Assembly (NCBI GenBank): GCA_032718475.1
Contig: JAUCBJ010006867.1
Location: 42,487-106,486, forward strand
Length of the DNA: 64,000 bases
Reading direction: 5' to 3'
From: Nemertoderma westbladi
Taxonomy: Eukaryota > Animalia > Xenacoelomorpha
Of this stretch, positions 10,899-51,399 are shown piece after piece (position 1 is the first letter of the stretch; every line of letters begins with the position of its first letter). Under the pieces are notes generated by a model. It worked only from the letters and a program-made list of their open reading frames with translations, was not told the origin of the DNA and ran no database searches. Position numbers and translations under genes: made by a program.

Positions 10899-10910
10899 TA
10901 CATACCTTAC
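10899..10910 (-). other. Putative non-tRNA, self-complementary primer-binding site of element A
   Basis: Minus ...GTTTAACA|GTAAGGTATGTA pairs with LTR-internal TGCATACCTTAC (plus 12014-12025): 10 Watson-Crick pairs, one G-U, one more pair. The LTR end is inferred because the matching 3' LTR end lies outside the window. Confidence 0.55.
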
Positions 10911-13075
10911 TGTTAAACAACCGCGACGCCTATACTAACAGCAGAACTGTTGAACAGACAAATACCCATATACCTCTCTGCCAACCTAATGAGCTCTCGC
11001 CTAACCAATAAGACACAAAGACTGCTCTACTGTTAAGTAAAGGGGATCAGGAGCGTGCTATTACTAAATTGTAAAGGTTGCTAAATACAAAACCGCTACT
11101 TACCGTTGGATGGCGCTAATCTGCCGTCCGCTAATATATTTACTAATTTTACACAACTCCTGCAAAATCGCTTGTTCCTTTCTCTACCGATCGCTCGATA
11201 GAGAGCTAACTGTTCGAATCTATGAGCCACGCGGGAATAACCAAAACAATAAACCCGAGTCGGCTCCCTAAGCTTACTTAAGACGAGTGCGAGGGGCTTT
11301 GCACTCAGAGTATATTCTTACGCCTAATTTTACTACTGAAATACGCCAATGCTTACGTCTTTTCTAATCGCGAATACTGGGGTTTCCCTAACGGAATGTG
11401 TGAATGCGAGAATATTTAAAATAATCAAAATTGGTACAGTACAATGTCTTTCGTAGGTGATACCGCTCTGGGTCTAAACTTGCCTGCAGCTGGCTTTAGG
11501 CCAGCAACTCACTAGTGTCTTGCATACTGACTATTGCGATCTAGTTTATTGCCCGCTAATGCAAATAACCGCTTAGCGTGAATAGTTTACGGTACTCTAA
11601 ATTATTACCTTAGCTACTCTCCGCTATGCTGCGTACTAATTCTTAATTTTACTAATCAATTACAGTCACAAATATGTAACAGCGCACTAATTACTAAGAG
11701 TTCCAGAATGCGTAATTCTAATTTATTACACAACAGGTTTCACTAGTAATAGCCTAAAATGCCGTATTACTTTGACCTAATCAGTAATTATTTGTTGTAA
11801 CTAAGAAATAGAAATCAATCAAAGAGAAAAGGGGCGCCTACCTAAGTATTCGTAATCATAGGCACACTTCAGTAACACACCAATCAGCGTCAGCAATCAC
11901 AGATCACAATAGTACAACTTGCAATTATACAATCTGCAATTATATAATTCGCAACATAATAATTCGCAATTGACTAATTCGCAATCTACTTACTCGCAAC
12001 TTACTTACTTACTGTAAGGTATGCAGGCCCCTCCCGGGTACATCTAGGCTCCCTAACTAACCCAATTCCTGCCCCCCTAATACTAAATAGAGACAAAACC
12101 TGGATCATCAGCCCCCTAATTACTGTACCAGCGAGCGGTCTCCAACCTACAGTCCAAATTGCCCGACCGCAACGTTGACCCCCCCGCCAGCGTTGCCCGC
12201 CTTTGAATCCTCCGCTCTCCCTTAGTCGCTCAACCCCCCGATGTGCCCACCGCCTACTGGCACCTTAGCCCTCCATTATGCTAATAGCTACCGTAGCGGC
12301 GCATGCAAATCACAAAGTCTGACAGTCTCAGAAATCCCTTAGGATTATTGCGTAGAAAGGAATCACATAGAACCATTAACAAAAGGTAGAAATCATAGTT
12401 CCAGTTGTAATTAGCAGTAATCGATAGGATTAATTGAGAAACACAATCAAGAATAATCGCACTAGCAAATCATTTTGAGAAATTAATCAAAATTTAGCAA
12501 ATTGCAGAAATACGCTAAAGGTTGGTGATAGGTACAGCTCTACCGGCACACCGCCAATTTATAGGTGATCCGAGTGGGGTGATGCAATAGGGTGACTCAA
12601 TCGCTCTCCTATTGGCTCTCCAGTCCGCGCTAGCATTAGACCAACCTGGAAGCAGTTAGTCCAATAAGGAGGCCGGATTGTAGCCCTATTGCTGCCCAAA
12701 CCTCAAATTATTACCATATATGGTAATGGATCATGTCCCTGGCTACTGAATGGCCAGGACAGCGTCCCTATATCTAGCCCTATCAAAACTAATAACAGCA
12801 AGCACAAAATCCAGGGTCCGACTAAACTTGCTACCCTGGAACTATCTACCTATATCCTAATACAAAATTACGTAGGTAGGGCTACATACTATACAAAATG
12901 GATGGATTCAAATATATGGGCGTTTTGATTTCCCCATCTAAATATCACCTCGCTATTATACCTTATCTAAAATATTATGCTGCACAACGGACTAATATTG
13001 CGTACAGTATAACGGACTAATATATTATACTGCATAATGGCTAATAATGTGGATACAGCGCCATATACCGTAACA
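10911..13075 (-). repeat. 5' LTR of element A (about 2.17 kb; inner boundary inferred)
   Basis: 11777-13075 is proven by the repeat. The inner end at 10911 is chosen from TGTTA...TAACA termini, length similar to the LTR of C, and PBS complementarity; 11031 is an alternative. TATAAA on minus near 12558-12563. Confidence 0.7.
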
Positions 13076-14039
13076 TATAGTCCTCCAAGTAAAGTGGCTC
13101 ATAGCGCCGGGAAGAAGACAACCATCACCCAAAAGTTCAAGAAACTTTGTAAACGTTGTTCTAGAAAGAAAGATTGCTTGTTTAGAGTAGTTATTATATT
13201 AAGAAATTGTGACTCTATGTATATTTTATAGACCTAAGTCCCATTTTCTGCGAGCGGTGTTAAAGCTTTTGCGGCCAAAATGTCCCCATTTTACACAATG
13301 CGCTGGATACTCTAAACCCTTGAAAAACTCTCAAGAACTTTGTATTTTTATGAACTGATATAAACTTACTCCCTCCAGCGTTTATTCTCAGTATAACACT
13401 TTCCCCTACATTCCCACAGAAATCAAATGCTCAGATTACGAAATCACCAGCCATTGGATATTATTCCCTTTGTTTACGTCCTTCTTTGTTAGTCACCATC
13501 CAATCAGTATACTTTCACTCTTACGTCACCCCATAGACTGAATTACCAGATCCATTGGTTATGGGTTGATGGCATGGAAACTGGTCCCTGATTGGGAGTT
13601 CTCGCATGTTCCATACGTTCTATGGCGTTTGATATGATTCATGCTTTGTGAACTACTTGAGGCAAGAATATTCTTGCAGGCTTCAGTACTTACTTTTTGC
13701 CCAGAAACACCAGTGGCAAGAAAGATACAGAATGCAAATCCATTAACGTTGACACATGTTTACAACGTTTGTAAGTCCAAAATTTTACACCCCTCACTGC
13801 AATACATCCTGACTGTCTGATATTGCCACAACACCATATTTTTATACTGATTTATGCTGTTATAATCTGTTGCAATTTGTATCATAGGGATTCATGTTAA
13901 TAGTTGGAGAATACTTACGAATACCCGGTAGATCTCTTGGTTTTCATGATCATTGAGGTAAGCGGAGGGGATTACTATTCACAATTGCATAGTTCATATA
14001 ACAGTGGTTTGTATGATCTTGTAAATTACATTAGTAATG

Positions 14040-16599
14040 TGGAGGTCCGGCCACTAGAGGCCAGTGGAATGACTGGACACAATCGGCCTCACAGGCGTCA
14101 GTTATCTCCTGACTGGCTGTCTGTCTCACCCCCTACTGGAGAGAGAGCGGCAAACAATTCTTTGAGTCCCTTTCCTAATGACCTTTCTGGCCCAAACCCT
14201 GGGTCACCAGGGAGGCCAGATTGTGAGGGGGAGAGGGATTCTGGAGTTGGAGGCTACTCTCATGTTCCACGCCGACCAACAAAGCCATTGGTGAATCTGA
14301 GGCAAGTTACTAGACTAACCACAGTAAACACCCTAACACTCGGGTCCCCAATGCGACAAGGTGAGCTGACTGCCTTGGCAGATAAGCTTTCTCTTAGTGC
14401 AGTGGGTGTTCAAGAGAACCGAATGCAGACTGGACAGACAGATGAAGTTCTGATCAAAGACATGGGGGCGGTTGGCGACTTGCCCTCGCTTCAGCAGATG
14501 ATAGTGGCAATGGTGGAATTGGTCTATTGATGAATCCAACTGCACATGCAGCATTGGACAAAATAGACAAAATCTCTAACCGCATCATCCGTTGCCACTT
14601 CTCATGTTCTGGAAGACTGGCTAAGAAGTTTCCTAAGGTGGTTTTGATTGTGTGCTACTCTCCAACTAGTGTTGCCCCTGTAGAGGAGGTGGAAATTTTT
14701 TACCAGAATCTTCAAGCAGCTACTGATGGAGTGGATCAGCATGCATTCTTAACATTCCTGGGAGACTTTAATGCAAGTCTGCATCAATCACCTACATGGC
14801 CCTGGGTCTATAGCAATAGTGTCAACCGAAATTCCGTCCATCTTCAGGATTTTATCTCTGGAAATGGATTGTTTTCGGCTGGAACACAGTTTAAGAAGCG
14901 AACTGGAAAGCTATGGACTCATAGTGGACCCAGTGGTCACAAGTCCCAGATAGACCATTTCCTGTTTCGTAGGAAATACAGTAGCTCTATACAAGACTGT
15001 AATGCATTTACACTACGACCCTTCTCCAGTGATCACCGCCTTATTGTGGCTTATTGTTATTGTAAGACTTAGTCTGCGTGCTAGCAGAACAACGAAATCT
15101 GCCTTGCCGCGGCATGACTGGTCCTCTCTGTTGCAACAGCCAAGTGTGAGATCCAGCTTCACACTACAGCTGAGCAACAGGTATGAGGCTCTTGCCTCTG
15201 AGGCGGCAGATCACTGTGAGGGCTAGACTGCCTTCACAGAAACAGTTCCTGTATACCCTCGAAATGGGAAACGGGGCCCCCTGGACTGACAACAAAATTC
15301 AGAAGTGCCGAAATGACCTCTACAAGGCGCAGAAAGAGTCCCGACTCAAACAGACTACAGCGGCCAAGAATGCAGTTAAGGCTGCATCTAGGTCCCTGAA
15401 CAGGCAGTACTCGGTTAATTTACAGGAGCTAATAAACCAACAGGTTGATGCCATCAATGATGCTGACGACAGCAGGCAATCATCCCAGGCATGGAGATCA
15501 ATCAACTTGCTTGCTGGTCGAAAAAGCCAACCAACCACCAAGGTTAAGGCTGAATCACCAGCCTATCGTCTCAATGGTTAGAAGGCCCACTTTGAAAAGC
15601 TCCTCAGTAATGACAGGGTATTGCCTGATAACTTTATAGACTTATAACTTGTTCATAATTGTTGTTGACTATGTTATACGCATGTCCTTAGATCATCATA
15701 ATGATGATGGGGTGATGATAACTCCACCTACTGGCTCCAGAAGTCGAGGAAATCCTGCCAAGTACCTAACTGATCTAGACTTTGCTGATGACTCAGGAGT
15801 ACTCTCAGAATCACTAGAGGGAGCCCAACGGCTCCTCAGCTCTTTAGAACATGCTGCTTCTAGTGCTGGTCTTTTTATTAACTCCAGAAAAACCAAAATT
15901 TTGACAGTTAACTTTGAAAGTCCTCAGCAAGTCTCTGATCGGATGAGCATAAGCTCAAAAGATGGTATGCTTGAGCATGTGGATGACTTCTGTTACCTGG
16001 GATCATGGATCCGGAAGTCAGGTGAGAACCTTCGAATACGTAAGGGAAAGGCATGGGCAGCCTTGAATAGGCTTTCCAGGATTTGGAAGTCACCGAGAAT
16101 TAATCGGAAACTTAAAGTCCGGTTATTTAGAGCAGCAGTAGTTCCAGTACTCCTCTATGGGAGTCCATGCTGGGCTCTACTGCTGAGGACACCAAATCTC
16201 TGGATGGCACATTCACAAGAATGCTACGCCGGGTTCATTGTGTCAAGTTCAATGCACACATCTCCAACCAGACACTATATAACATTGGAGGTGTATCATT
16301 GCTTCCCCCAAGCTTGACACTAGAACAAAATCGCCTCCGCTTTGCGGACATTGCTTTCGCCGTGAGGACCAGCCAGTGCATAATCTTCTACTTTGGCAGC
16401 CTCATGGAGTGAATAAGCATGGTGGACAGCCCATGACTTTCTTGAGACGCATCTTAAAGGACACTGGCGTTGAAGATGCGGATGATCTAGCAAATGTCAT
16501 GGGTGATAGGGAGTTGTGGCGGCGCAATTTTGTCGACAAGCCGGCACAGCATTCTTAAAAATGCAGCTGCAATGCAGCATGCCGATCCTAGTAGTAGTT
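14040..16599 (+). mobile_element. Decayed RTE-like LINE (AP endonuclease plus internally deleted RT), (TAG)n tail
   Basis: APE motifs QENR, YSPT, LGDFNA, SQIDH, SDH at about 14290-15070. RT C-terminal half LFIIVVDY, LDFADD, FCYLGS at 15649-16317. Many frameshifts; tail TAGTAGTAGT near 16589. 5' end approximate. Confidence 0.85.
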
Positions 16600-17531
16600 A
16601 AAAGAGATTAACTTTCAATAAAAATACCTTATCGGAGTATTATAAAATTAAATTACGTACATTTTTTAGAAGGTATTTAAGGGTGTCCACTCATTAAGTA
16701 GGCCTACATTTCTAGCTTACTATTTCTAAATTACGTGAATTTATTATGATCACACAGTTATGTATCATTAAATTATAATTAAAAATATATTTTATGTTTT
16801 TATTACGCTGCTACACCAATGGAGGTCTTTGGCCTTGATTCTGATTGAACATTAAAACAAATTTATAATAAATAATAATTTAAAAATATTCCAAGGGCTG
16901 TTTTCTTATCTAGTTGTTAGTGTAATAATAGGCCCTACAAGACTCAGTCTGAGTCTGACACTTCTACAATACTGCCTTGTAAATCTAATCCCTGTCCATC
17001 CACGCAAAATCAAGCAAGCTCCATCCGCCGCCATGTCAATCACATCGCGGCTTGACCATTAACAAAAGCCAGTTCTTGGCGGGAATCTAAGTACAAAGGC
17101 ATGCCGCAGAAGAGAGATGCAAACTGTTACCTTGAAATCATTTCAATGTCATTTCAATATGAGACCGAAAGTCTGGAATTTCGGTCCGTCGATTTCAAGG
17201 TCATTTCAATATGCCATCGAGGTCATTTCAATGTCAATGCTACTTTCAATGCTACTCTATGGACACATTTTGATCAAACTTTGATCAATATTTGATCAAA
17301 GGAATGCTTTTTGAGAGCGGGACTGTATCACCTTTATAACCGGTTTGGTTAATTGTGCTGACAATAAGTTGATATCATTCGATCCAACTCCTTGACAGAA
17401 GACATCCAAGTCTTCTTTCGCATACCATTTGATCAAATCTGGGAGATTTGTATAAGATAACCCGCGCTATGTGAGTGTATTTTGTAGTTTACCATCTGGG
17501 CTACAATTTCGCGGATCAATGTACTTATAAA

Positions 17532-19753
17532 TACTATAGACTACGAGATGGGAACAAGTGGTTCAGCCATGAGGCGCGCCGCCTAAAACAACAGCGTCGT
17601 AAAGCAGAAAAAAGGTGGTGTAAAACTGGTAAAATAGAAGATAAAGTTAAGTTTAAAGAAATTCGAAACATATACGCAAAAAAACTAACAACTGATCGCC
17701 AGGAATACTATCGTGGATTAATCCGCGCATGCTCAGGTGACCAAAAGAAGCTATTTAATGTAATAAAATCATTATCTAAGCAAAATCAAGTGATTAAATA
17801 CCCACAGCATAATAATGCTCTAGAACTTGCCAACAATTTCGCAGATTACTTCGCTTCCAAGATTAAACTCATACGTGCTGAACTGGATAACGCAGCAGCT
17901 GCAAATGACGACGGAGACGTCATTGGAAACGACCATGTAGTAATCCCAGATGACACGTCTGCATCCTTAAGTAATTTTAACACTCTGTCTGCAGAAGAAG
18001 TTACGAAACTGGTCAATACTGCACCGAATAAACAATGTCCACAGGATCCCCTACCGACGCAGTTACTGAAGTCTTGTCTACTGGCTCTCATTCGGCCTAT
18101 TACTACCATGGTCAATCAATCACTGGAGACTGGAGTGGTCCCGCCACTGTGGAAAATTGGGACAATTGCACCAATACCGAAAAAACCTTCCTCAGATCGG
18201 TCAACAAATGCAATTAAAACTGTTAAAAACAAGAACTTTCGCCCAGTTAGTGGCATAGCTTTTATCTCAAAGATAACTGAGAGGGCAGTAATAGCTCAAG
18301 TTCAGCCACACATTGACACCTATTACCAATTGCCAATATTTCAATCGGCGTATAGGAAACATCATAGTACCGAAACGGCCCTCGTCAAAGTCCAATCCGA
18401 TATTCTCCGAAACATGGATAACAAACAAATAACTTTACTTGTGTTACTTGACCTCAGCGCCGCTTTCGATACTGTAGATCACACTCGACTGATGAACGTC
18501 CTTCGAAATCGCCTTCATATCTGCGGCACCTGTCTCAAATGGTTCCGGTCCTTCCTATCTGGCCGAGTCCAACGAGTAGCCACGTTAGGGGCCACATCCG
18601 ACGATCAGCTACTGGAATATGGTTTCCCTCAAGGATCATGCTTATCATGCACACTTTTCCCCAACTACAGTGCTGGCCTCTTGGAGGTAATACAGCACCA
18701 TTTACCGTTGGCTGGCCACGGTTTTGCTGATGACCATCAGGTCTACTGCTCCTCCCAACCATTAACATCGTCTAACGAAAGAGCAGCCATAGAGTCCATG
18801 GAAGCCTGCATCGCGGAGATGCGCAGCTGGTTATTAAAACATCGGCTCAAGCTAAACGACGACAAGACTGAATTTATCTTGCTCGGATCGAAATCTCAAT
18901 TGAGTAAGCTGTCCTCAATCTCAATTCGCGTTGGAAACTTTGATATCGAACCGGTTAAATCGGTCAGAAACCTTGGAGCCTGGTTCGACTCCGAGATGAG
19001 AATGAATAAATTTATATCTAAAACATGCAGCGCCGCATACTACTACCTGCACAACATTCGCTCAATTCGGAAATATCTCGACACTAAGGCCGCAGAAACA
19101 ATTATACATGCTCTCGTGACTAGCCGCATAGACTACTGTAACGCCCTTCTCTATGGAGTCCCAAGCTACCAATTACAGAAACTCCAACGTGTACAAAACA
19201 CAGCTGCTAGGTTGCTTACAGGTGTACACAAATACGACCATATATCGCCGACGTTGAAATCCCTCCACTGGCTGCCTGTGCGCAAACGTGTAGAATTTAA
19301 AATACTGCTGATGACGCACAAGGCCTTGGTCGGCCACGCTCCCAAATATATAATCGAAATGCTCCATAAAGTTAGTAGCGATCGCCTCCAAACTAGAAGT
19401 TGTAGCACAGTAAGTCTCGTCGAACCACGGTTCCAGTGCTACACTCTCGGGTGGCGGGCGTTCGAGGTATGCGCGCCCCGGCTGTGGAACAAACTACCGG
19501 CTTCGCTACGTGATATCCAGTCTACGGCATCATTCAAAGGAAAACTAAAGACTCACCTGTTCACCCACCCACCTATAAAATAGACTCATTTTTAGCCGAT
19601 CGTTTTTAAAAAACTTTGTTTTTACTTTTCTTAATTATGTACTCTACGCGGTTTTCTTTTTATTTAAATTGACTAACCTAACTCTGATTAGCGCCATAGA
19701 ATACTACCGGTAATGTTGGCGCTATACAAATCATTAAATATTAAATATTATTA
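17532..19753 (+). mobile_element. 5'-truncated L2/CR1-group LINE with TSD TTATAAA
   Basis: Uninterrupted RT frame to 19583 (NFRPVS, QSAYRKHHSTETAL, DLSAAFDTVDH, GFPQGS, FADD, LHWLP). 3' stem-loop TAGCGCCA...TGGCGCTA (19689-19724) and ATT-rich tail. TTATAAA at 17525-17531 and 19754-19760. Confidence 0.9.
17547..19583 (+). CDS. LINE ORF2 reverse transcriptase region (endonuclease lost by 5' truncation)
   Basis: Part of track ORF 17475-19583; the first ~20 codons of that ORF lie in flanking DNA. Confidence 0.85.
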   Translation, partial: DGNKWFSHEARRLKQQRRKAEKRWCKTGKIEDKVKFKEIRNIYAKKLTTDRQEYYRGLIRACSGDQKKLFNVIKSLSKQNQVIKYPQHNNALELANNFADYFASKIKLIRAELDNAAAANDDGDVIGNDHVVIPDDTSASLSNFNTLSAEEVTKLVNTAPNKQCPQDPLPTQLLKSCLLALIRPITTMVNQSLETGVVPPLWKIGTIAPIPKKPSSDRSTNAIKTVKNKNFRPVSGIAFISKITERAVIAQVQPHIDTYYQLPIFQSAYRKHHSTETALVKVQSDILRNMDNKQITLLVLLDLSAAFDTVDHTRLMNVLRNRLHICGTCLKWFRSFLSGRVQRVATLGATSDDQLLEYGFPQGSCLSCTLFPNYSAGLLEVIQHHLPLAGHGFADDHQVYCSSQPLTSSNERAAIESMEACIAEMRSWLLKHRLKLNDDKTEFILLGSKSQLSKLSSISIRVGNFDIEPVKSVRNLGAWFDSEMRMNKFISKTCSAAYYYLHNIRSIRKYLDTKAAETIIHALVTSRIDYCNALLYGVPSYQLQKLQRVQNTAARLLTGVHKYDHISPTLKSLHWLPVRKRVEFKILLMTHKALVGHAPKYIIEMLHKVSSDRLQTRSCSTVSLVEPRFQCYTLGWRAFEVCAPRLWNKLPASLRDIQSTASFKGKLKTHLFTHPPIK

Positions 19754-24813: not shown

Positions 24814-25381
24814 TGTGAGCGGATTCAATTCCGCCTCACTATCCCCATAAAGTTGGGAAGTGGCACCTTTGTCATCAATATTGGGGATACGAGATTAATC
24901 ATAACTAATCTCGTATCACCCCCAATAACGGGGACAAAACACGGCCCCGAAGGCCACACACAAAAGAGGTTAGAGGTCAAGCTACCTCGAGAGGGAAAGT
25001 AACAGCAGCCGGGGGGAAGCACTCCCACAGAGGTGGGAGCCGAGAATTAGTATATCAACCAATGGGAGAGGAGAGCATCCACTGAACGAAGGCCAAGGTA
25101 GTGTAGCCATAATTAGACATATATATTATATCTCATTGCCGGTCAGTAGTTCAGTCATCTCAGTCATCCAGTGCAGATCGGTGACATTTCGTACCGTCAC
25201 CGTCATTACCGGTACAACATCTTATATTACAACAACTGTGCTATTATATTCAGTTTACTCATTTACTCATATCTGCATTAAGCTATAACAATATTAGACC
25301 AACAGCAACAAACTATCTTTTCCCAATTACACGGTGACGCGTAACCTAATCAACCGGTCGGGATCCCCTGATCCCGTCACA
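24814..25381 (+). repeat. 5' LTR of element B (568 bp)
   Basis: TGTGA...TCACA; matches 55157-55723; TA-rich box near 25119-25131 followed by TCAGT initiator-like motifs. Confidence 0.95.
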
Positions 25382-25390
25382 GTACGAAAT
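25382..25390 (+). other. Self-complementary PBS of element B
   Basis: GTACGAAAT directly after the LTR is the reverse complement of ATTTCGTAC at 25186-25194; no TGG. Confidence 0.65.
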
Positions 25391-35585: not shown

Positions 35586-35597
35586 TTGATACAACAA
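35586..35597 (+). other. Self-complementary PBS of element C
   Basis: TTGATACAACAA directly after the LTR is the reverse complement of TTGTTGTATCAA at 34622-34633; no TGG. Confidence 0.72.
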
Positions 35598-36331
35598 TAT
35601 AATTGCTGTGATAAAAACTTACAGCGAGTTTTGTGCATTTAATATAGTTTTGACCTGTGGATTTTAGCGCCAAGTTGGTTAGTGGGGCTGTACCCATAAG
35701 GACAGTCTCGTGTTTCGGCAAAATTGTAGTGACATCAGTAGTTTTACTTGAGGCTGAATTGTTTATTTTAACCGAGTTACGACTTACAGGGACGTTGGAC
35801 GACGTAGCTGATAACAAGATTCGCCGACAGTCGACAAGTTTGGTACGATTGGACGGAATAGAACATCCTCATCATTGGTACGCGACGGAGGTTGTTGACG
35901 TCTCTTGGGGTAAGTTGCGTTGCTACCGGTGTACTTGTGAGCCTTGCAAAAGTGAAAGTAATTCAGTTTCACCCAAGTAAAAATGTAAAGTCACAATTTA
36001 AAATGTGCTTAATTTAATAAATTAAATTAAATCCCAAATAAATATCGGGATTGAAGGTTTCCTGAACTAAGTCAGATTGCTTGATCGTGTTGGGAGCCAT
36101 ATCATACCATTGTTTTTTTTTTATATACCATACCATAACTTGAACAATTTGACTTGATAATTTCGTTAAAATAAAATTCGAATAAAGTTATTTGAATTTA
36201 AAATTTTGACTAGAAATTTTAGAAAATTATCCCTGCTATATGCAGCCAACTTTTCGATAAAATTTAGAACAATTTAGAATTTCAACACTCGGTGGAAACA
36301 CCAGAAAACTTTAACAGGTAAGTAAGTGGGT

Positions 36332-39300: not shown

Positions 39301-39430
39301 TCAAGATTCCAGACGGGTCATCAGATGAAGAAGAATGTGAATCAGGTAAGGCTGAGACTAACGAGCGTAGCGAGGAAACGAGTGCTGGACAGACATTTCT
39401 TACAGCCGCTCAGTCAGCTTCCTTCAGTGT
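36332..39430 (+). pseudogene. gag: gag of element C (one in-frame TGA at 37622-37624, two frameshifts)
   Basis: ORFs 36326-37624, 37625-38929 and about 38900-39477. FAARQGLPTQETPKFNG; knuckles CQFC, CWRC..GH..C and CPDC..HH..LH. Confidence 0.88.
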
Positions 39431-42400
39431 GGTACCAATTAAAGTTAAGGGGCGGAAGGGTTCGAAGAGAATACTAGTAGTATTGGATCCAGCTTCTACA
39501 CACAGCTACATCGATCGTCAAGTAGCTGATGTCATAACAGATGTTCACAACGCAACAGATATTGTGGTAGAAATGGGCACTATTCACGGCCAAGGTGATA
39601 TAAACGGTAAGGTTGTTAACGTAACTTTAGATTCTCTATTACCACGTGAGTATTATTCTATTTCAGAACGTAAATTGTTACCTTTAAAGGGGCAGAAAAT
39701 TGTTGCGCTTAAAAACTTTAGTGAAGTGCTGGGAAATGTTCCAGAACTATCTGAGAAGGAACGTAAGTACTTTGGAACTTTGAATGTCCCTGAGTGTAGA
39801 GTTAATTATAGGAGTGTAGCCATGTTAATAGGGCTTGATATTTTTGACGCACACCAAGTATGGGAGACCAGGCCACATCCACCCTTGCCAGGTATGCCAT
39901 ACGCATCACGAAGCGTGCTTGGGTGGTATACTAGATCGCCAAAGAATTTCATTGATGGTACAGGTAGGGTGCAGCATAAACTGTCTGAATGTAAGTTGAA
40001 TCAAGTTACCTCGATGGTACCAGATATAAATGTAAGTTACAATAAGCAAGTACAGAGTCCACGCGCGTTATTGGCCTGCGCAGATGGAAATCTATCTTAT
40101 TCATGTGAGTCAGATGAGGATCCTCTGGAAGACGAATGGGAGTCTGCTTCAGAAGAAGATGGAGCGAGTCTGTTTCGTGATGGAGCTTGCGCTTACACAT
40201 TCTTAAGTGAGGTTCATCGATTTACTGAGTTGAGGTCCTCAGCTCCACGAATAAAACAGTTGGAAGATCCATTAGCGACACTAGTCGATCTGGAATCTGC
40301 CAGAGATCTGATAGATCAGGAGCGAGAAATGAATAATAAAATCCTGCAGTGGTTAAACAAGGATTCCGCTGAGTCTGGAAGTTACGACATTAGCATGTCT
40401 GTCGAAGATATCCGATCACTAAAAATTATGGAAAGAACTGTGAATAAACTCGAAAACGGTCACTTTGAAGTGGGTATGTTGTGGAGACGCGAGGAGCCTG
40501 TGTTGATTAACAATTACGAACTAGCAGTGAGCCGTATGAAAGCGGTTCGAAAGCGACTATTAAAGGACCCAGAGATTCTCAGACAATATAAGTTTCAGAT
40601 AGATGACTATCTTCAGAAGGGTTACGCCATAAAGATGGAGAGACCTGATATAAGTCCACAGACTTACTATCTACCCCACCATTACGTCGTTCATCCAGAT
40701 AAACCAGGACGAGTGCGAGTGGTGAACGATTGCCGCCTACCATATCAAGGTATGTCTTTAAACAGCGAATTAATGGATGGTCCAAATTTAAACAATTTAC
40801 TAGCGAGTATCCTTATGCGATTCCGACAGCGTAAAGTCGCGTTTACTTGCGATATCGAGGCCATGTTCCACCAGGTCTACGCTCTCGACGCTGATAAAGA
40901 AAGTCTTAGATTTCTGTGGTACGATAATGACGAACTGAGTGGTGAACCAGTTGTTTACCAGATGGTTGTCCGCATTTTTGGCGCTCGAGACAGTCCCAAT
41001 GGGACATTGTGGATTCTAAAACATACTGCTGACTGTCAAACAGAACATTATCCCGCAGCAGTTATAGAGAGTGTCAAGCAGAGTTTCTATATGGACGATG
41101 GATTGGAGAGTTTGGATACCGAGGAGGAAGCTATAGATCTTGCCCACGGGATAAAGAGTTGCCTAGCAACAGGTGGATTTAACCTCACCAAATTTACAAG
41201 TAATTCTCCAGCCGTTATTGATTCGTTTGATAAGAAAGAGCGGGATAAAAGTCTTAGTGAAATCGAACTGGAGTTTGATGACATTCCTACTACCAGAGTG
41301 TTAGGACTCACTTGGAACCCATCTACAGACTGCTTCAGTGTTCGGGTGCGCGATGTAACAACAGCGCCAATATTGACAAAAAGAGTTTGTTTGTCAACTT
41401 TAAGTCGACTTTTCGACCCACTCAATTTAATTAGTCCAGTTATTCTTCAAGCGAGAATTTACATGAGATCGATATGGAAGGCTGGTGTAGAATGGGATAC
41501 ACCCATTATAGGCGAGGTAAGTGCATCATGGAGCGAGTGGGAGAGCCAATTACCAATACTCCGTGAGCTTAAATTTCCCCGCGTTTATTTTCCTTCACAA
41601 AGTAAATTCCCAACCGAAATGGATCTTCATTTATTTAGCGATGCAAGTGATAATGGGTTCGGAGTCACAGCTTATCTTAGGAGACAATTATCGGAAGGTG
41701 AGTTTGAAACGTCACTAGTGACGTCACGAGCTCGAATCCGACCATTGGAATATATGTCCACACCTCGTGCTGAACTTCAAGCAGCGTTATTGTCAGTGTC
41801 AGTAGCTAAGTCGGTAATCAAAGCATTATTAACCGATTTGACGGCTTATTATTGGACAGATGCGTCGATGGTATTGATTTATTTAAACCACGAACAGGTA
41901 CAGTTTCGTACTTTTGTAGCAAACCGCAGAGCAGAAATTCTTGATTTCACAACCAGGTTTCAGTGGCGACACTGTCCAGGTGAAATAAATCCTGCGGATA
42001 TTGCGTCCAGAGGAATGATGCCTTCTGAATTCTCAAAGTCTGGGGTACTAGACCTGTGGTTACACGGACCAGACTTTCTTAGGCAGTCTCAGGAACATTG
42101 GCCTGCGTTTCTTGACTATCGTAATGTTAAGCTGCCTGATGAAGCTGAAGTGAAGGTTGCTAAACATATCCGTTCTAAAGCCAAGGTAAGTCTTCGAACT
42201 CGTAAGACAACTGGCAAAAAGATGTCAATAGCTGCTGTGGGGCGGGAACTTTTAACGTCTCAAGATATTGGCTATCGCTATAACTACAGGTTACAAGACC
42301 ACGTATTGCCGTGGCAACATCCTGTAAATATGGTAAGTAGAGTTACACCTGTAGAAGTATCTTTAGATCAGTGTGAAGTGCCAGAAGTAACAGGTAATGT

Positions 42401-44330
42401 GCGTATCAATGCTTCAGAACCCGCACATTTGACTTTATATACTTTAAGATCTCGCACTACCAATGAGGTGAGTAATAAAAGGGAAGGGCTTCCACTTCCA
42501 CTCCCCATTGCCTCTGTTGGTGATTGGGGCCCAGTGGAGTCTGATGCCATAGAGGTTATTGATCTTACGGACATTGACAATAGTGTTAATATACTGAGTA
42601 ATCCGACAACAGATTTGGATAATGTTCCAGATTATCCGCCTGAAAGTATAATGGCAAAATCAATAGATATAGCTAAGGTGAGTGACATAGTGACGTCATC
42701 GGTTGACCCAGCGCTTAAAGTGCCGTATAAACAAAGGAAAATACCAACAATTTCAGATGACGATAGATATTTATTCGACCGACTTTATCTAACAAGTTCA
42801 TCTTGGATGGACATGGTTAGGAAAGCAGCGTGGATATGTCGTATTGCGACATTCTGTGGCAAGTCTAAGGGTTGGGATAGGTCTGACTGGCGTAAGAAAA
42901 TCATACGAGAAATGCCCCGCAGACTAACGCTGGATGAACTGGACAGAGCCGAACTGCTGATAATAAGACATTTTCAGATTAGGTTCTATTTACATGAGTA
43001 CAATTCATTGGCAATTGGGAAACCGATAGGACAGTCACCACTTGCCAAGTGGAGTCCTGTCATTGAAAATGACGTTTTATGTCACAATTCCAGGTTACAA
43101 TCTTGTGACATATCAAGTAAGTTTCTTTTCCCTATTATAATACCACCACATTTTGAGTTGCAATGTGCCATGATCTGGGATGCACATCTCAGACTTAAGC
43201 ACGCTGGCAAACATCATTGTTTGTCACATTTACGGCAACGATTTATGTTGATAGCTCCAACACGGGCGTTAAATGCCGTGTTGCGTGGGTGTATTACTTG
43301 TAAGAAGTTGAATGCTAGAATGGGACAACAACAAATGGGTAAGTTGCCTATTGCCCGCACACATTCACATCAGCCACCATTTACAAACACTGGACTCGAT
43401 TGTTTCGGTCCATTTCAGGTAAGGCGAGCACGTTCAATAATTAAACGATGGGGTTTAATTTGTATCTGCATGGCTAGTAGAGCCATTCACATTGAACGTG
43501 TCTCAGACATATCAACCAACGCACTTATTTTAGCTTTGAGACGCTTTATTGCCCGTCGGGGTAACGTTCGTGCTTTCTACTGCGACAAAGGCTCTAATTT
43601 TGTCGGTGGAGAAAACGAATTGAGCGCCTCATTTGACAATTTTGACGAAGTAAAAATCGTCGGTGAATTAGTTCCGAAACGCATTACTTGGAACTATAAT
43701 ACGGTAAACAGTCCCTGGCGTGGAGGCAGCTGGGAGAGACTCATTAAGTCTATTAAACTAGCCTTCTACAAGACAATGCCTACACATAAAGTATTGACAG
43801 ATGACGAATTGGTCACACTCTTTGTAGAGATAGAACACATTTTAAACTCTAGACCAATTGCAATGATACCGGACACTGACGATACTGTAATCGCACTGAC
43901 TCCGAATCATCTGTTGATGCAAAGTCCGACTCCTTTGGTTCCACATTCGTTCCCACAAGACAGTGACTTGTACAGTAGACGAGCGTGGAAGGTGACACAA
44001 TTACTAGCTGACAGGTTTTGGGATCTATGGCGAACGTATTATTTGCCATCCATAACCGCCAGGACTAAATGGTATGAGCAGTGTAGAAACCTATGCAAGG
44101 GTGATCACGTGCTGCTCGCAGAGGCCAATATTAGACGGAGACATTGGATGACTGGGGTTGTCATAGCAACATACCCAGACGTTAATGGTGTCATCCGAAC
44201 AGTCAAAGTTAGAACATTAAATCAAGAAGTTGTTGTGCGTCCAGTGCAACAACTGGTCCTGCTTGAGGAGTCTCGCTGTGAAAGTGGAGATTATTCTATC
44301 CCCAGCAAAAAAGCGAGAAAATCAAAATGA
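39429..44330 (+). CDS. pol: BEL/Pao Pol (protease, RT, RNase H, integrase) of element C, open for 1633 codons
   Basis: VLDPAS, YYLPHH, FYMDD, LFSDAS, HHCC finger, GLDCFGP, DKGSNFVG, GGSWERL, LNSRP, C-terminal G..RTVKVRT..RPV. Confidence 0.95.
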   Translation: MVPIKVKGRKGSKRILVVLDPASTHSYIDRQVADVITDVHNATDIVVEMGTIHGQGDINGKVVNVTLDSLLPREYYSISERKLLPLKGQKIVALKNFSEVLGNVPELSEKERKYFGTLNVPECRVNYRSVAMLIGLDIFDAHQVWETRPHPPLPGMPYASRSVLGWYTRSPKNFIDGTGRVQHKLSECKLNQVTSMVPDINVSYNKQVQSPRALLACADGNLSYSCESDEDPLEDEWESASEEDGASLFRDGACAYTFLSEVHRFTELRSSAPRIKQLEDPLATLVDLESARDLIDQEREMNNKILQWLNKDSAESGSYDISMSVEDIRSLKIMERTVNKLENGHFEVGMLWRREEPVLINNYELAVSRMKAVRKRLLKDPEILRQYKFQIDDYLQKGYAIKMERPDISPQTYYLPHHYVVHPDKPGRVRVVNDCRLPYQGMSLNSELMDGPNLNNLLASILMRFRQRKVAFTCDIEAMFHQVYALDADKESLRFLWYDNDELSGEPVVYQMVVRIFGARDSPNGTLWILKHTADCQTEHYPAAVIESVKQSFYMDDGLESLDTEEEAIDLAHGIKSCLATGGFNLTKFTSNSPAVIDSFDKKERDKSLSEIELEFDDIPTTRVLGLTWNPSTDCFSVRVRDVTTAPILTKRVCLSTLSRLFDPLNLISPVILQARIYMRSIWKAGVEWDTPIIGEVSASWSEWESQLPILRELKFPRVYFPSQSKFPTEMDLHLFSDASDNGFGVTAYLRRQLSEGEFETSLVTSRARIRPLEYMSTPRAELQAALLSVSVAKSVIKALLTDLTAYYWTDASMVLIYLNHEQVQFRTFVANRRAEILDFTTRFQWRHCPGEINPADIASRGMMPSEFSKSGVLDLWLHGPDFLRQSQEHWPAFLDYRNVKLPDEAEVKVAKHIRSKAKVSLRTRKTTGKKMSIAAVGRELLTSQDIGYRYNYRLQDHVLPWQHPVNMVSRVTPVEVSLDQCEVPEVTGNVRINASEPAHLTLYTLRSRTTNEVSNKREGLPLPLPIASVGDWGPVESDAIEVIDLTDIDNSVNILSNPTTDLDNVPDYPPESIMAKSIDIAKVSDIVTSSVDPALKVPYKQRKIPTISDDDRYLFDRLYLTSSSWMDMVRKAAWICRIATFCGKSKGWDRSDWRKKIIREMPRRLTLDELDRAELLIIRHFQIRFYLHEYNSLAIGKPIGQSPLAKWSPVIENDVLCHNSRLQSCDISSKFLFPIIIPPHFELQCAMIWDAHLRLKHAGKHHCLSHLRQRFMLIAPTRALNAVLRGCITCKKLNARMGQQQMGKLPIARTHSHQPPFTNTGLDCFGPFQVRRARSIIKRWGLICICMASRAIHIERVSDISTNALILALRRFIARRGNVRAFYCDKGSNFVGGENELSASFDNFDEVKIVGELVPKRITWNYNTVNSPWRGGSWERLIKSIKLAFYKTMPTHKVLTDDELVTLFVEIEHILNSRPIAMIPDTDDTVIALTPNHLLMQSPTPLVPHSFPQDSDLYSRRAWKVTQLLADRFWDLWRTYYLPSITARTKWYEQCRNLCKGDHVLLAEANIRRRHWMTGVVIATYPDVNGVIRTVKVRTLNQEVVVRPVQQLVLLEESRCESGDYSIPSKKARKSK

Positions 44331-45174: not shown

Positions 45175-46834
45175 TTTACATTGGCATGTTAAATACAGAT
45201 TTGTGTATTATGTATGTAGCAAATCAATAGTGTACGTCCCTTTAACAAAGGGTTGATGATAATTATATATTAATTCATGTAAACTTGAAATATTTACTTG
45301 AAGGTTCTAATAATAATTACCTTTTGTATTCTTGAAATATTTAGTTTGATTTTAATAATAATAATATTTTCTACGTGCATGGTTATGGTTATAATATTTT
45401 ATCTTTAATTTGTATTCGTAAAGAATCTAGGTATAAAGCTTCAAAATGTTGTATACGCGTATCTGGAACTCTCACGTCGTGTGCCCAAATGGCTCAATCA
45501 GAAGCGCGCCAGACACTCAATCTGGAAGTTGTGGTTTCTATAATCTTAGAGTAGAGTAGTAGTTTTTTCGTAAATTGTCTTAAATTTATAAAAGTTTCTA
45601 AAGTTGTTTTTTTTTTGCTCATTTAGGTTAAGTATATACGTTGTTTTTGGAAGCATACGCACTGTAAAACCTATGTACAGTACTTCTGCTTGGGGCGGTG
45701 TTTTGATTATTGAGAGGCAGCAAATTTAACTGTTGCCAGGGTATCAGAAATAAATTTTGCGATAATAATATTTGGCGAATTTTATTTAATATTTACTGCA
45801 TCCAAACATATCAATTTGTAGAACGGCTGCTTATTGCATCAGCCGGAATTATATTCGTTTCCTAATATTTTATAATATGGTTATACTGAGTTAGCCACAT
45901 ACTCAGCTTTCCGAAATATCTGTGTATTAAGTTTTATACCAAATAACTTCGACATTTAATTCATCATGAAAAGTTTGTAGCTCTAGCCGTTTTGGCATGA
46001 CTATTACAGATTCACTCTGTAGTCTATGAAATTAACATCGCACTAAATGTCAGACCACCAAGGGATTTTATTTACCGCCTTTGATTTACTTAAAATGCTT
46101 GTGGCAGAATCTAACACACGTCCTATGTAGAATGATTTATTTGTGTTTCTATTAGGATTGACAGATTACTTCGATTTTCAAGACTTTTGCGGATAAAATT
46201 AATAATGTATTTCAATGGGGCTGTTCTGTTATTTATTGTTAATTATTAATTTTTGTATTATATAATCTCTCTTTATGTGATAAGTTAGAATTATGCGTTA
46301 GGACCATATTTTCAAAATTATATTAGTGAATAATTTAAATTAACTAACTATTTATGATGTACTACACTAAAATATTCATACGCGGTAATCTCATTGACCA
46401 ATAGCTCTGTCGAGCGTTGAGAAAGAGATACAACTTCAATATTCCAAATACAATATAATATAATAGGCTAACATCATATAGCCTAACTAACGGTAACGCA
46501 ATACAAGTATTAATACATCAGGCACAGCTACTACAATCTGTATGTAGGCCTATATATATAACCATAGGTACGGTACCGTATTTCGCCCTGTACTACACAC
46601 TACACAAACTCTACATACTCCCCCGCTAATAAAGCTAAAATATATAATATATATTTCAGGAAAAATCCGAAGAAACCGTTACAAAGGAGGATGTCATTAG
46701 TTCCGAAAGTCTATACCTAGTTACCAATTTAGTTACAGTTTAAGACTAACAATACTAAAGAAAATATTGATTACATACCCAAAAAAGGAAACCCTACTTT
46801 ACCAGTGCAATGTCTTTATGTGTGGCCTCCTAAT

Positions 46835-49800
46835 CTATTTATATATACGACCACTCCTAGTACATGAAGTCTGAGTATTATGTGTGTTCCTTGTAGTGGT
46901 AGAGCTCTGGGGCTCTTCTCCATGATTTGAGGGACTATTCACCGCAAAATCATAACTTATATCGAACGTTTCCTCTTCTGTATTCCCAGGATTCATATTG
47001 TCATTATCGACTTGCTCCACTGAATCCACTATCGACTGGGGACAGCGCGATAGTTTAGAGATATTCACTGTGTCTATCCAACCATTGCCATCATCAACCT
47101 TTACAATCTGGTTGGAGATTACTTCTATCACTTGCGCTTTGACAAGAGACTGTGTAGGTCCCTTCTTACAGAATACCCAGTTGCCATTCCTCAACCAGGT
47201 TGGTCCCGTGAATTTTACATAGGGTTTATCGGAGCTGGATGGCCTGGGTGCGACTGTAGAGAATCTGTTAAATCTTAAGAACCTCGAGTGAGGTGTGACA
47301 CCTGTAATACGGTTAGTCAAGGCACGTATATTCCCCAATGCATTATCCAGCTCTGACTCCCATTGGTTCACATTCTTATTGGACTCTGCCAACCGAAGCA
47401 GAATGTGCCGCCAAATTATTCCGTTGTACCGTTCACACTGCCCATTACCTGAAGGATGATAGGCAGTTGTACGTGTTTTAGTAATATTCCATGATTCAAG
47501 ATAATCTCTAAATTTCTGACTTTCGAACTGTGATCCTCTGTCAGAATGGACAGACTTACATGGACCAAATAGAGTAAACAGCGATGTTAAACATCGCTCA
47601 ACAGTTTCTAACTTCATGTTTGGTACAGGAAATGCAAATGGAAATCTCGAAAACTCATCAATGCAAACGAATAAGTATTTATTTCTGGTGGCTGATGGTA
47701 TGGGTCCTTTAAAGTCAACCGAGACTCTCTCCCATGGTTCTGTAGATGATGTAATTGTCCCGGGAGTTGGTTTTACAAACCTTGGTTTCTGCTCACAACA
47801 AATTATACAGTCATGACATATCTTAGCGCAATCTTGCTTCAGCCCTGGCCAATCATAAAATTGTTTAATGAATTGATATGTCCTTTCCACACCAGGGTGC
47901 CCCAAACCTCTATGAATCGTGTCCAATGAAACAGAACCTTGTCCATCCTGTAATCCTCCATCTGACGACTGAGATGCGCAACACCGGCTCAGTGCATCAG
48001 CTATGATATTGTCTGTACCTCTCCGGTAACTGATTTCAAATGCAAACTCAGCCAACTCGATGCGCCACCTACACAATTTCCTATTCTTCACTTTTGTTTT
48101 TGGCCGTTCATCTAACAAGTATGATACTCCTTCCTGATCTGTTAATATTTCAAAACGCCGCCCCATTAGAAAGTCTCTCAGTTTATCCACACAGTAATAT
48201 ATCGCAAAGGCCTCTAGTTCTGGTGTGGACCAATATCGTTCTGTCTGACTAAGGCTGTGAGAAATAAAGGCGATGGGACGTCCATTCTGTGATAGCATAC
48301 CTCCAATAGCACTGTCAGATGCATCAGTTTCTAAAACTAAGGGATCAACTAAATTTGGTATCAATAAACACGACTCCACTATCTGTCTTTTAATTTCTGT
48401 GATAGCCTGGATACATTCACTATTCAACGGGAAGCACCCCTCTTTGAGTGATACAAAGAGTGGATTAGCTACCATAGCAAAGTTCTTCACCCATTTTGAG
48501 TAATATACGCATATTCCAACAAGCCTTTCTAAAGCTTTCTTGTTACTGGGCACTGGCAGGTCCATAAGCCCTTGATATCTAGAAGGATCCGGTTTGGTAC
48601 AACCATTACCAATAATATGACCCATAAACTGAATTTCAGTTTTGTGGAACTCACACTTAGTTAGCTTAAACCTCATTTGGGCAATTCTTGCTCTCTCTAG
48701 GAACTTCCGCACCCGCTCATCATGCTCTTTCGTATCATTACCAAATACAACAACGTCATCCACTATTACTTCAACCCCTTCTAGGTCTGAAATAATGTTC
48801 ATAATTTCTCTCTGGAACACTGCGGTTCCATTAGTTACCCCATATGGGAGTCTATTAAATTGAAACAGTTTACCCCCGGCCTCGAATGCGGTGTAAGGTC
48901 TTTCCTCTTCCTTGATAGGTAGCTGGTGATAGGCCGACCTTAAATCGAATTTTGAAAAAACCTTACCAACAGCTATACGATCAATAATTTCCGAAACCAC
49001 TGGGAAGGGGTATGCATCATGTTCAGTGAACTGGTTTATCGTCGAAGCATAATCTATGCAAAACCGACGCTTATCCCCCTCGTGGGAAATCACACACTGG
49101 GACCTCCATGGGCTTTGGGAAGGTTCTATTACCCCATCTCCTAATAGTCGTGTTACTTCGGATTGAATAAACTTACGGTCATCACTGCTCCTGTAACGGG
49201 ATGCAGAACGGATGGGAGTGGCCTCGGAATTCAGTATAATGACTGACACAGGTTCCACAGCTAACCCCACATTTTCTTCAACAAACAATTCCTGAAATTC
49301 TTCGAGTAACCCACCACTACAGCTTGAGACCCGTAAGTTACCCTGATTACCTCCAAAAGGCAACTGAACCTCGGTAAACTCCTTCAGAGCTGACACACCC
49401 AGAATTGCCGGATCACACAACTCCCTAGCAATAAACACTGGGACAACTATATAACGGTTATCAATTTCTATAATGGTTTCAACTTTCCCCAATATATTAA
49501 GCGACTGGTTCCCAATAGAAAGACATGAAGTGCCTATTGTGGACCCATTTATCTGCCATTTAAACTTCTTAGCAGTATGTAAATCAACTAGCGTTATATC
49601 CGAACCAGGATCCACAAGCCAATCTAATTGTATATCATTCACCTTTGCCGTTACAAACTTCCTTAAACTTCCACCGGTATTCTGGTGTCCGTCATTGGCG
49701 GCAACCCGAAATGCAGCCGAACTTGAACTGTTTCCCGGCGCCACATTCCCAGTAGGCTTAGAACCAGGAGTGGTAGAGCGACACATTCTAGCGAAATGGC

Positions 49801-50677
49801 CCGGTTTACCACACTTGTGGCAATCAACACTCCTTGCTCTACATTCAGTTTTAGAATGAAAAGCTGCAGAACCGCAACCAAAACACCTCCATTTCCCTGA
49901 TGGACTTGACTGTTGGGTCGCCCGACCAGAACATACATAGGCGGGGTTATGGATTGATGACCCATCCACACCGGGTCCAGTTTCAGCCAATCTTGTGAGA
50001 GCCCTTGGGACATTCGCAACTTTAGACCCATGTGACGCTGTAACGCCCCCAGAATGTTCCACAGCTGCTCTCACAGAGGACTGTTCAATCTCTGCCGTCG
50101 AGAACGCATCCTCAAATCCAAACACATTCCCCGACTTTTCCGCCGATTTATAAGCCCGGAACACTGCAACGCGAATGTCGTCCGAGGCAACTCCAGTACA
50201 AAACGCATCCCGAAGCGCCTCGTTCTCAAAGGCTGCAGGGAAACGACAAAAACTAATATTCTTCCTCAGATCCGATACAAAATCATCTAAACTCGCTCCA
50301 TCACTTTGCTTTGATGAATAAAGCTTAACTCGTTCGCTTAACGCGTTTCTCTCCATCATCAGCTTCTTTTCGAGGAAGCTAACCGCTTGAGTGAACTCGG
50401 TTTCTCCAGGATTTAAGGTTCCCCACACCTTCACCTCGTCGTAATATCTAGCTGCTTTCTCGCCGGAGTAAAGCAACAGCCAATCTACCTTTTCCGAATC
50501 GGGAACTCTGGATAGACGTATGAAGCGCTTAAACTGATTCATCCACTGAGAGAAGTCATCTTTGTCAGGGTTAAACTTCTCCAAAACACGGCTTAGTGTA
50601 GGACCGGTTCTCCGTTGTCCAGTACCAACGTCGTAGGGTTCAGTGTTAGTACCGGTACTCTGATCGGCTTCAGCCAT
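46835..50677 (-). CDS. Single Gag-Pol polyprotein of element D (1280 aa)
   Basis: Two CCHC knuckles, protease LVDPGS, RT (FDLRSAYHQ, LPYG, IVDD), RNase H ETDASD, integrase HHCC plus DFKGP / SDRGSQF / GQCERYN. No chromodomain evident. Confidence 0.96.
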   Translation of the reverse strand: MAEADQSTGTNTEPYDVGTGQRRTGPTLSRVLEKFNPDKDDFSQWMNQFKRFIRLSRVPDSEKVDWLLLYSGEKAARYYDEVKVWGTLNPGETEFTQAVSFLEKKLMMERNALSERVKLYSSKQSDGASLDDFVSDLRKNISFCRFPAAFENEALRDAFCTGVASDDIRVAVFRAYKSAEKSGNVFGFEDAFSTAEIEQSSVRAAVEHSGGVTASHGSKVANVPRALTRLAETGPGVDGSSIHNPAYVCSGRATQQSSPSGKWRCFGCGSAAFHSKTECRARSVDCHKCGKPGHFARMCRSTTPGSKPTGNVAPGNSSSSAAFRVAANDGHQNTGGSLRKFVTAKVNDIQLDWLVDPGSDITLVDLHTAKKFKWQINGSTIGTSCLSIGNQSLNILGKVETIIEIDNRYIVVPVFIARELCDPAILGVSALKEFTEVQLPFGGNQGNLRVSSCSGGLLEEFQELFVEENVGLAVEPVSVIILNSEATPIRSASRYRSSDDRKFIQSEVTRLLGDGVIEPSQSPWRSQCVISHEGDKRRFCIDYASTINQFTEHDAYPFPVVSEIIDRIAVGKVFSKFDLRSAYHQLPIKEEERPYTAFEAGGKLFQFNRLPYGVTNGTAVFQREIMNIISDLEGVEVIVDDVVVFGNDTKEHDERVRKFLERARIAQMRFKLTKCEFHKTEIQFMGHIIGNGCTKPDPSRYQGLMDLPVPSNKKALERLVGICVYYSKWVKNFAMVANPLFVSLKEGCFPLNSECIQAITEIKRQIVESCLLIPNLVDPLVLETDASDSAIGGMLSQNGRPIAFISHSLSQTERYWSTPELEAFAIYYCVDKLRDFLMGRRFEILTDQEGVSYLLDERPKTKVKNRKLCRWRIELAEFAFEISYRRGTDNIIADALSRCCASQSSDGGLQDGQGSVSLDTIHRGLGHPGVERTYQFIKQFYDWPGLKQDCAKICHDCIICCEQKPRFVKPTPGTITSSTEPWERVSVDFKGPIPSATRNKYLFVCIDEFSRFPFAFPVPNMKLETVERCLTSLFTLFGPCKSVHSDRGSQFESQKFRDYLESWNITKTRTTAYHPSGNGQCERYNGIIWRHILLRLAESNKNVNQWESELDNALGNIRALTNRITGVTPHSRFLRFNRFSTVAPRPSSSDKPYVKFTGPTWLRNGNWVFCKKGPTQSLVKAQVIEVISNQIVKVDDGNGWIDTVNISKLSRCPQSIVDSVEQVDNDNMNPGNTEEETFDISYDFAVNSPSNHGEEPQSSTTTRNTHNTQTSCTRSGRIYK

Positions 50678-50688
50678 ATCAGAATTGA

Positions 50689-50703
50689 ATTAATACTTGT
50701 ATT
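50689..50703 (-). other. Self-complementary PBS of element D
   Basis: Minus AATACAAGTATTAAT, 1 nt after the LTR end, is a perfect 15-nt complement of the LTR segment at plus 50797-50811. Confidence 0.88.
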
Positions 50704-51399
50704 TTGTCGAGCGTTGAGAAAGAGATACAACTTCAATATTCCAAATACAATATAATATAATAGGCTAACATCATATAGCCTAACTAACGGTAACGCAATA
50801 CAAGTATTAATACATCAGGCACAGCTACTACAATCTGTATGTAGGCCTATATATATAACCATAGGTACGGTACCGTATTTCGCCCTGTACTACACACTAC
50901 ACAAACTCTACAAGCTCATCGCCTGTTAACTATTTGTATCGATTGCTCCATAATTATTTTGCCTTCCTTCAACTTCACAATTTGCAAACGGATGAGCCAT
51001 ACATTTAAAACTAAATTATTATAAATTTATCATAATGTAAATATAATACATTTGGCGTCCTTTGATGGGTCGCAATTATTAGTATATTTAATTTTATCTT
51101 TCAACACCATCATATATCTTCCTCGATGTGCTTTTAATTCAACGGGCGGGCTCTCAACCGATCATCCATGACGTAGTTAGGAAAATCTTCTCCTCTCGAT
51201 GAAGGGCGCCAAGCCACGGTGACAGGTATGCGGGGAAGCAGTGTGTGACGTCAAACCGTTACTTGAGCACAGTGCGACACGTAGCGTTACATTACTGGGG
51301 TTATTATATAGCAGGGCGTATGGGTGTCATATGTATGTATTGGGTTGTTTAAGGTAAATTAGTCCGTGATTGTGTTAGTTGTATATGTCGGTAAGTGTT

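Follow-up and report, generated by a model that had tools for sequence, protein, structure and literature searches.

Candidate self-priming of BEL/Pao and Gypsy retroelements in Nemertoderma westbladi and predicted splice-built primers in their BEL/Pao relatives

A window of 64,000 nucleotides from Nemertoderma westbladi (contig JAUCBJ010006867.1, positions 42,487 to 106,486 of the forward strand) contains a nest of long terminal repeat (LTR) elements, which self-comparison, open reading frames and Pfam searches identify as the BEL/Pao elements A, B and C and the Gypsy element D. None of the four has TGG after the terminal ACA of its 5' LTR; the site for a tRNA 3' end that the profile of the International Committee on Taxonomy of Viruses (ICTV) gives for BEL/Pao is thus lacking in all three BEL/Pao elements. 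The position holds an exact complement of a segment of the element's own LTR. We assign a probability of about 0.6 to the reading that A–D use this segment of their LTR RNA as the minus-strand primer, similarly to Tf1, in which the RNA's initial 11 bases pair with the primer site and the RNase H cut follows base 11 (PMC7175516, partial text). By sequence signature, A–D would be self-primers of the Tf1 type; A, B and C stand outside the Tf1/sushi group, and D probably does as well.

The primer-site position of A (10899–10910, minus strand) includes a 10-nt complement that starts at the LTR end (10910–10901 against 12023–12014) and extends to 12 bp, up to 12025, with one G:U pair; four GTAAGT donor-like sites are found from 12012 on. 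The complements in the other elements are 9 nt in B (25382–25390 against 25186–25194, plus strand, offset 0), 12 nt in C (35586–35597 against 34622–34633, plus strand, offset 0) and 15 nt in D (50703–50689 against 50811–50797, minus strand, offset 1). The absence of TGG and these complements, including the wobble pair in A, had been reported in a preliminary description of the window and are borne out here, the LTR end of A being an inferred one. The LTR ends of B, C and D are fixed independently of the self-priming hypothesis because each element is flanked by a 5-bp target-site duplication (TSD); the corresponding position of A is outside the window.

As a control, the LTR of each element was subjected to 200 dinucleotide shuffles. 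At offsets 0–1 the observed length was reached by one shuffle for A and by none for B, C and D; at offsets 0–5 it was reached by three shuffles for A, one for B and none for C and D. A distant BEL/Pao element of the same window, E, has a TGG-type primer site, and its own-LTR match is merely 4 nt. No primer split by an intron was found in A–D, where the best spliced scores were 0 under strict rules and 7–9 under loose ones, all below the unsplit match; the primer segments of these four elements are of the unsplit form. The LTR end of A is supported independently, short of proof, by a step in contig depth from 5–6 thousand (bin 10852–10897) to 63–136 thousand (bin 10898–10943), an 11- to 28-fold rise in three runs of a summed and noisy measure. 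The sole CA in the latter bin ends at 10911.

Relatives of the BEL/Pao elements were collected from metagenome contigs with an alignment of C and 29 homologues, and the best 80 of 482 loci were retained; viral contigs yielded no relatives for either the BEL or the Gypsy alignment. A long-range direct repeat is present in 31 of the 80 loci. The LTR end was usable in 16 of them, and 15 were dropped, as their repeat stopped at a contig end or fell in coding sequence. In the strict test one GT-AG intron with strict donor and acceptor signals was allowed inside the LTR. An own-LTR match of 10–15 nt was found in 12 of the 16 relatives, compared with 2 of 370 cross-family pairs in any form. Two relatives have TGG (L007 and L052), and their self-match score is 4 each. 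The co-variation of each site with its own LTR that was noted for A–D therefore holds in the relatives, and the elements with TGG-type sites lack the match.

Only four of the 16 relatives (L015, L044, L045 and L070) have an unsplit match, of 10–12 nt. The other eight of the 12 matching relatives have the complement only when a predicted GT-AG intron in the LTR is removed, with spliced matches of 10 nt (L025 and L034, which are one family), 11 nt (L011 and L048), 12 nt (L017, L018 and L063) and 15 nt (L043). The predicted introns in these eight are 67–186 nt long, and the pairing involves 5–7 nt of the downstream exon and 4–9 nt of the upstream exon. Without splicing, the remaining relatives show matches of 5–9 nt only, which start directly after the AG acceptor. 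Spliced matches of at least 9 nt are absent from all 370 cross pairs. An initiator-like TCAGT motif considered for the start of the segment was dropped, as those sites read better as splice acceptors. In L015, L017, L021, L044 and L058, one or both LTR copies end in TA instead of CA.

A gag start could be located in 59 of the 80 loci, which were submitted to a boundary-free scan, and 58 of these were counted. Spliced matches of at least 10 nt were found in 18 of 58 loci against 10 of 696 cross pairs, and those of at least 11 nt in 15 of 58 against 3 of 696. The scan revealed six new families (L006, L026, L027, L036, L046 and L075). Two of the 18 matches, namely that of L006, which has a weak donor, and a second match in L015, are probably due to chance.

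Between families the matched words vary on both sides of the pairing. The sister families L044 and L045 (74% reverse transcriptase (RT) identity) are distinguished by a double change in the helix, and L046, L048 and L070 (58–64% identity) have three different matched pairs. In L011, L063 and L058 (58–72% RT identity) the junction is kept with introns of 164, 149 and 405 nt. In L070 an acceptor coincides exactly with the junction in the 5' LTR copy, and the 3' copy has the joined sequence (1–326 and 6694–7103 of the same contig), which hints at a precise intron loss; these copies, 88% alike, could stem from separate elements, and the contig does not include the donor. The sequence, the position and the co-variation of the matches are direct observations, as are the controls.

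In the RT-RNase H trees, which contain unnamed rows only as no named BEL/Pao references were among the homologue matches, A and C form a sister pair, to which B attaches by a long branch at moderate support (93/94). Rows with split, unsplit and TGG-type sites are interleaved; a single starred group unites the three relatives with TGG, and the unsplit L044, L045 and L070 fall within starred groups that include split families. A single clade for all 22 self-matching BEL rows is neither rejected nor shown (p-AU, approximately unbiased test, 0.08). The earlier proposal that a BEL/Pao sub-lineage self-primes is supported as far as the sequence signature goes; its restriction to a small sub-lineage is not, as the self-match spans families that are only 35–60% alike in RT-RNase H.

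Relatives of D were found at 36 loci, in animal-type contigs inside genome records. D and eight of these loci form a starred group in the tree, and all five scorable members self-match, with 14 nt in L082, L086 and L088, 15 nt in L084 and 10 nt in L085; the LTR ends of L082 and L084 were set by eye, and L085 and L086 are close relatives. Two Gypsy elements outside the group, L090 and L106, have TGG and a self-match of 5 each. A motif shared within the clade produces 10–11-nt matches in 4 of 54 cross comparisons. In L082, L085, L086 and L088 the pairing partner of the primer site is the poly(A) signal of the LTR itself. The animal-type Gypsy elements L081–L112 lie in contigs filed under prokaryote genome records, which are probably host contamination.

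On balance, we favor the view that tRNA priming has been lost in a wide branch of BEL/Pao, which makes its primer by splicing, with A, B and C representing the unsplit state, and that the animal Gypsy clade of D reached self-priming separately. In this scenario, only spliced RNA would start reverse transcription, and an unspliced LTR copy would transmit the intron. The splice-built primer of the relatives is the bolder part of the claim.

The paired site is 0–4 nt from the LTR end in every case and takes the place of TGG, an arrangement that is typical of a primer site. Transcription would begin upstream of the pairing segment in the 5' LTR, and the segment would fold back onto the primer site. 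The RNase H of the element would then cut the RNA at the 3' end of the segment, as in Tf1, leaving a 3'-OH 0–4 nt from the LTR end. RT would extend this end over the remaining LTR sequence and then transfer to the 3' LTR, which would serve as the template for all that lies upstream of the cut. In split families, the primer would be put together when the 5' LTR is spliced, and the intron would be inherited via the unspliced 3' copy: as the cut would fall a few bases into the downstream exon, the upstream part including the intron would be copied from the 3' LTR. The intron would persist if the 3' LTR copy is unspliced and would be lost if it is spliced, giving rise to unsplit families. In 12 of 14 relatives the segment is followed, at a distance of 6–132 nt, by a poly(A)-like hexamer (an uncontrolled count), which could fit the requirement for strand transfer.

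RNA folding was predicted with guessed transcript starts, and longer complements pair better by construction. The predicted probability of the primer helix in spliced relatives is 0.59–0.98 in six of ten, compared with at most 0.09 in all ten when they are left unspliced. The helix of D has a probability of 0.98. In A and C about 1 kb separates the segment from the primer site, an interval that contains donor- and acceptor-like motifs, and removal of a guessed intron raises the pairing probability of A to 0.79–0.95. In B, a predicted 9-bp flanking helix (25195–25203 with 25331–25339) and a U5 hairpin (25359–25376; the whole fold at 25195–25376, plus strand) stack beside the 9-bp duplex in a fold 1.1 kcal/mol above the best one, and would buttress this duplex. 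A helix beside the primer duplex resembling the U5-IR (inverted repeat) helix is thus predicted for B, in this suboptimal fold, and also for D.

Several observations weigh against self-priming of A–D or against its splice-built form. B is the weakest case, with 9 nt being reached by 9 of 370 cross pairs. The end of A has the longest match among 94 candidate CA positions (10 nt, with 8 nt for the runner-up), and the match at this boundary is by itself not significant, with a chance estimate of about 0.35; moreover, depth dips of similar size occur also inside the LTR of A, and read mapping with contigs gave no loose contig end at the boundary among the matches listed. Pseudo-sites of at least 10 nt (10–11 nt) were found in 3 of 80 downstream windows, all in the long-LTR elements A and C. 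Among the relatives, 2 of 16 missed the strict test, as L058 reaches 12 nt only with G:U pairs and L021 reaches 11 nt only after a boundary shift. The intron hypothesis was derived from these same loci, which is why the boundary-free scan was run, and 37 of the 58 scanned loci have no spliced match, many being apparently collapsed contigs that miss most of the LTR.

The predicted structures add further difficulties. The helix is weak or fails in four of ten spliced relatives (0.00–0.38; one at 0.38 and three at most 0.02), the helix of B has a probability of 0.19–0.23, and that of C is 0.00 unspliced and 0.94 only with a guessed downstream intron removed. Judging by TATA-like motifs, the transcript would start upstream of the segment by about 15 nt in D, 35 nt in B, 130 nt in C and 500 nt in A, so the segment appears to lie inside the transcript and not in its first 11 nt as in Tf1. 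AATAAA or ATTAAA is not found after the segment in B, C and D, and in A it is 286 nt on. The start of transcription, splicing, cleavage and priming are all deduced from DNA, and an intron that is not always lost needs differential splicing of the two LTR copies.

This last point bears on an alternative in which the element's own RNA primes from another molecule or another end, either as a short spliced LTR transcript acting in trans on unspliced genomic RNA, like a home-made tRNA, or by fold-back of the 3' LTR copy. It offers the simplest account of intron survival and agrees with the downstream poly(A)-like hexamers and with the segments of D relatives that end at a poly(A) signal. Tf1, the sole worked-out case, primes in cis from the 5' end (PMC7175516, partial text), and both the intron-less LTR copy of L070 and the nesting of unsplit families among split ones suggest that the template copy is sometimes spliced. 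We consider such priming unlikely, although it is the alternative that survives best.

Alternatively, the pairing could be a regulatory structure that masks a splice donor, the start codon or the poly(A) signal of the 5' LTR, with something else used for priming. A masking role is allowed by the segments of D relatives, four of five of which end in AATAAA or ATTAAA, by the resemblance of the primer site of A to a splice donor and by the primer sites of L044 and L045, which abut the gag ATG. Against masking stand the position of the paired site, in every case 0–4 nt from the LTR end like a primer site, and its presence in place of TGG, not in addition to it; the segment of BEL relatives precedes the poly(A) hexamer, and no other primer site is visible. 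We find this explanation rather improbable.

Priming by host tRNA halves or other small RNAs, with incidental LTR matches, would agree with the ICTV description of Belpaoviridae as tRNA-primed (PMC8742986) and with half-tRNA priming in Copia lineages (PMC6317226, partial text), and is very unlikely, as an outside RNA cannot explain sites that differ by family while each fits the LTR of its own element, in many cases across a splice junction. Chance matches in AT-rich LTRs, for which the 9-mer of B and the pseudo-sites of A and C could speak, are the least credible alternative and unlikely for the set as a whole given the shuffles and the cross-pair controls in BEL relatives, the boundary-free scan and the D clade.

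Descriptions of self-priming exist for Tf1/sushi and Tcn1 and, within Copia, for the TAR lineage (PMC6317226, PMC4600332 and PMC6934838, partial texts). Like Tf1 and Tf2 of Schizosaccharomyces pombe, Tj1 of S. japonicus and other chromoviruses of the Tf1/sushi and Tcn1 groups, A–D have no tRNA site; as in Tf1/sushi and Tcn1, a primer site of 10–15 nt by the 5' LTR is complementary to the element's own LTR-derived RNA (PMC7175516, PMC4600332 and PMC6317226, partial texts). In contrast to Tf1/sushi, which are Ty3/Gypsy chromoviruses, A, B and C belong to BEL/Pao, and D showed no chromodomain match at E up to 5. The segment is predicted to be inside the transcript and in most BEL relatives spans a predicted intron, unlike in Tf1, and cleavage and priming have been demonstrated for Tf1 whereas A–D are known as sequences.

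A–D share with the TAR lineage of Ty1/Copia (Houba, Osr-1) that self-priming is a sequence-based prediction; of the complements, those of A, C and D have at least 10 bp starting 0–5 nt after the LTR, as required for TAR, and that of B with 9 nt does not. The TAR elements are from another superfamily and from plant hosts, and a split primer is not mentioned for them in the available part of the source (PMC6317226 for all three points). According to the ICTV profile, the primer site of Belpaoviridae is 18 nt long and used by host tRNA-Arg or tRNA-Gly, their LTRs measure 0.2–1.2 kb, and their replication is poorly understood (PMC8742986). A, B and C resemble Belpaoviridae (Semotivirus) in domain content and order, LTRs, polypurine tract and 5-bp TSD, and differ in the absent tRNA site and, for A and C, in LTRs of 2.2 kb (PMC8742986).

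The profile agrees with the earlier statement that BEL/Pao elements are generally described as tRNA-primed, and no report of self-priming in BEL/Pao, of which none had been known to the preliminary description, or of a splice-built primer was found in a literature search of titles and abstract starts, a scope that leaves Repbase, GyDB, supplements and most subscription journals outside. The term PBS (primer-binding site) is absent from the main text of PMC554778, PMC3118150, PMC6238403 and PMC11117352, whose supplements could list primer sites, and the available parts of PMC8220671, PMC3601003 and PMC3286476 contain nothing on it.

If the proposed self-priming is true, the mechanism, known in Gypsy chromoviruses and one Copia lineage, extends to a third LTR superfamily, and it would explain how such elements can escape LTR finders that demand a tRNA site. 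A splice-made primer would make the initiation of reverse transcription dependent on the host spliceosome and would be a natural case of an intron retained inside an LTR; the element might also be freed from silencing by tRNA fragments. Each step of the model predicts a specific junction read or primer sequence and is directly testable.

Element A, on the minus strand, has a 2165-bp 5' LTR (10911–13075, 3' end inferred), a gag-pol region in three frames (2101–9772) with DUF1759, Peptidase_A17 and Integrase_H2C2, and a 3' LTR (1–1299) that is truncated by the window start and 99.5% identical over 1299 nt; a second copy of the pairing segment is at 247–238 inside it. Element B, on the plus strand, has a 568-bp 5' LTR (24814–25381, with a TATA-like motif near 25120) and a 3' LTR at 55157–55723, the pair being 97.4% identical. 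C, also on the plus strand, is inserted in the integrase region of B and has a 2216-bp 5' LTR (33370–35585) with a TATA-like motif at 34465 and donor-like sites at 34552 and 35021, a gag-pol region in several frames (36326–44330) with DUF1759, Peptidase_A17 and DUF5641, and a 3' LTR (45699–53166) interrupted by D and by a 700-bp element with terminal inverted repeats; its LTR pair is about 99% identical. D, on the minus strand, is inserted in the 3' LTR of C and has identical 208-bp LTRs (5' at 50705–50912, with a TATA-like motif near 50857; 3' at 46408–46615) and a single gag-pol frame (46835–50689) with zf-CCHC, RVT_1, RT_RNaseH and rve.

The assignment of A, B and C to BEL/Pao follows from Peptidase_A17 in all three, DUF1759 in A and C, and an integrase after RT-RNase H, together with TG...CA LTRs, a polypurine tract and TSDs, that of A lying beyond the window. 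Their gag-pol regions contain stops or frame changes, and D has one long frame. A and C each have an in-frame stop between consecutive frames, and long acidic frames without a Pfam match are found upstream of their DUF1759 regions (7763–9772 in A and 36326–37624 in C). In the LTRs of A and C, about 2.2 kb long, a TATA-like motif is followed downstream by several donor-like GTAAGT sites. The 700-bp element in the 3' LTR of C (51400–52097) is non-coding, has 30-bp terminal inverted repeats and is beside a donor-like site.

No tRNA genes were found in the window by ARAGORN. Element E (58984–63420, plus strand), a distant BEL/Pao element whose RT-RNase H is 28% identical to that of C, has an inferred 5' LTR reaching to 59314 with TGG 2 nt past its end (58984–59325) and a 3' LTR outside the window. 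Two non-LTR elements are also present. At 13900–16600 there is a fragment of a long interspersed nuclear element (LINE) with endonuclease and RT matches, whose family is very abundant, as contig depth there climbs to 1.8 million and greatly exceeds that of the surroundings; the second, at 17475–19583, has a 702-codon RT frame and low depth.

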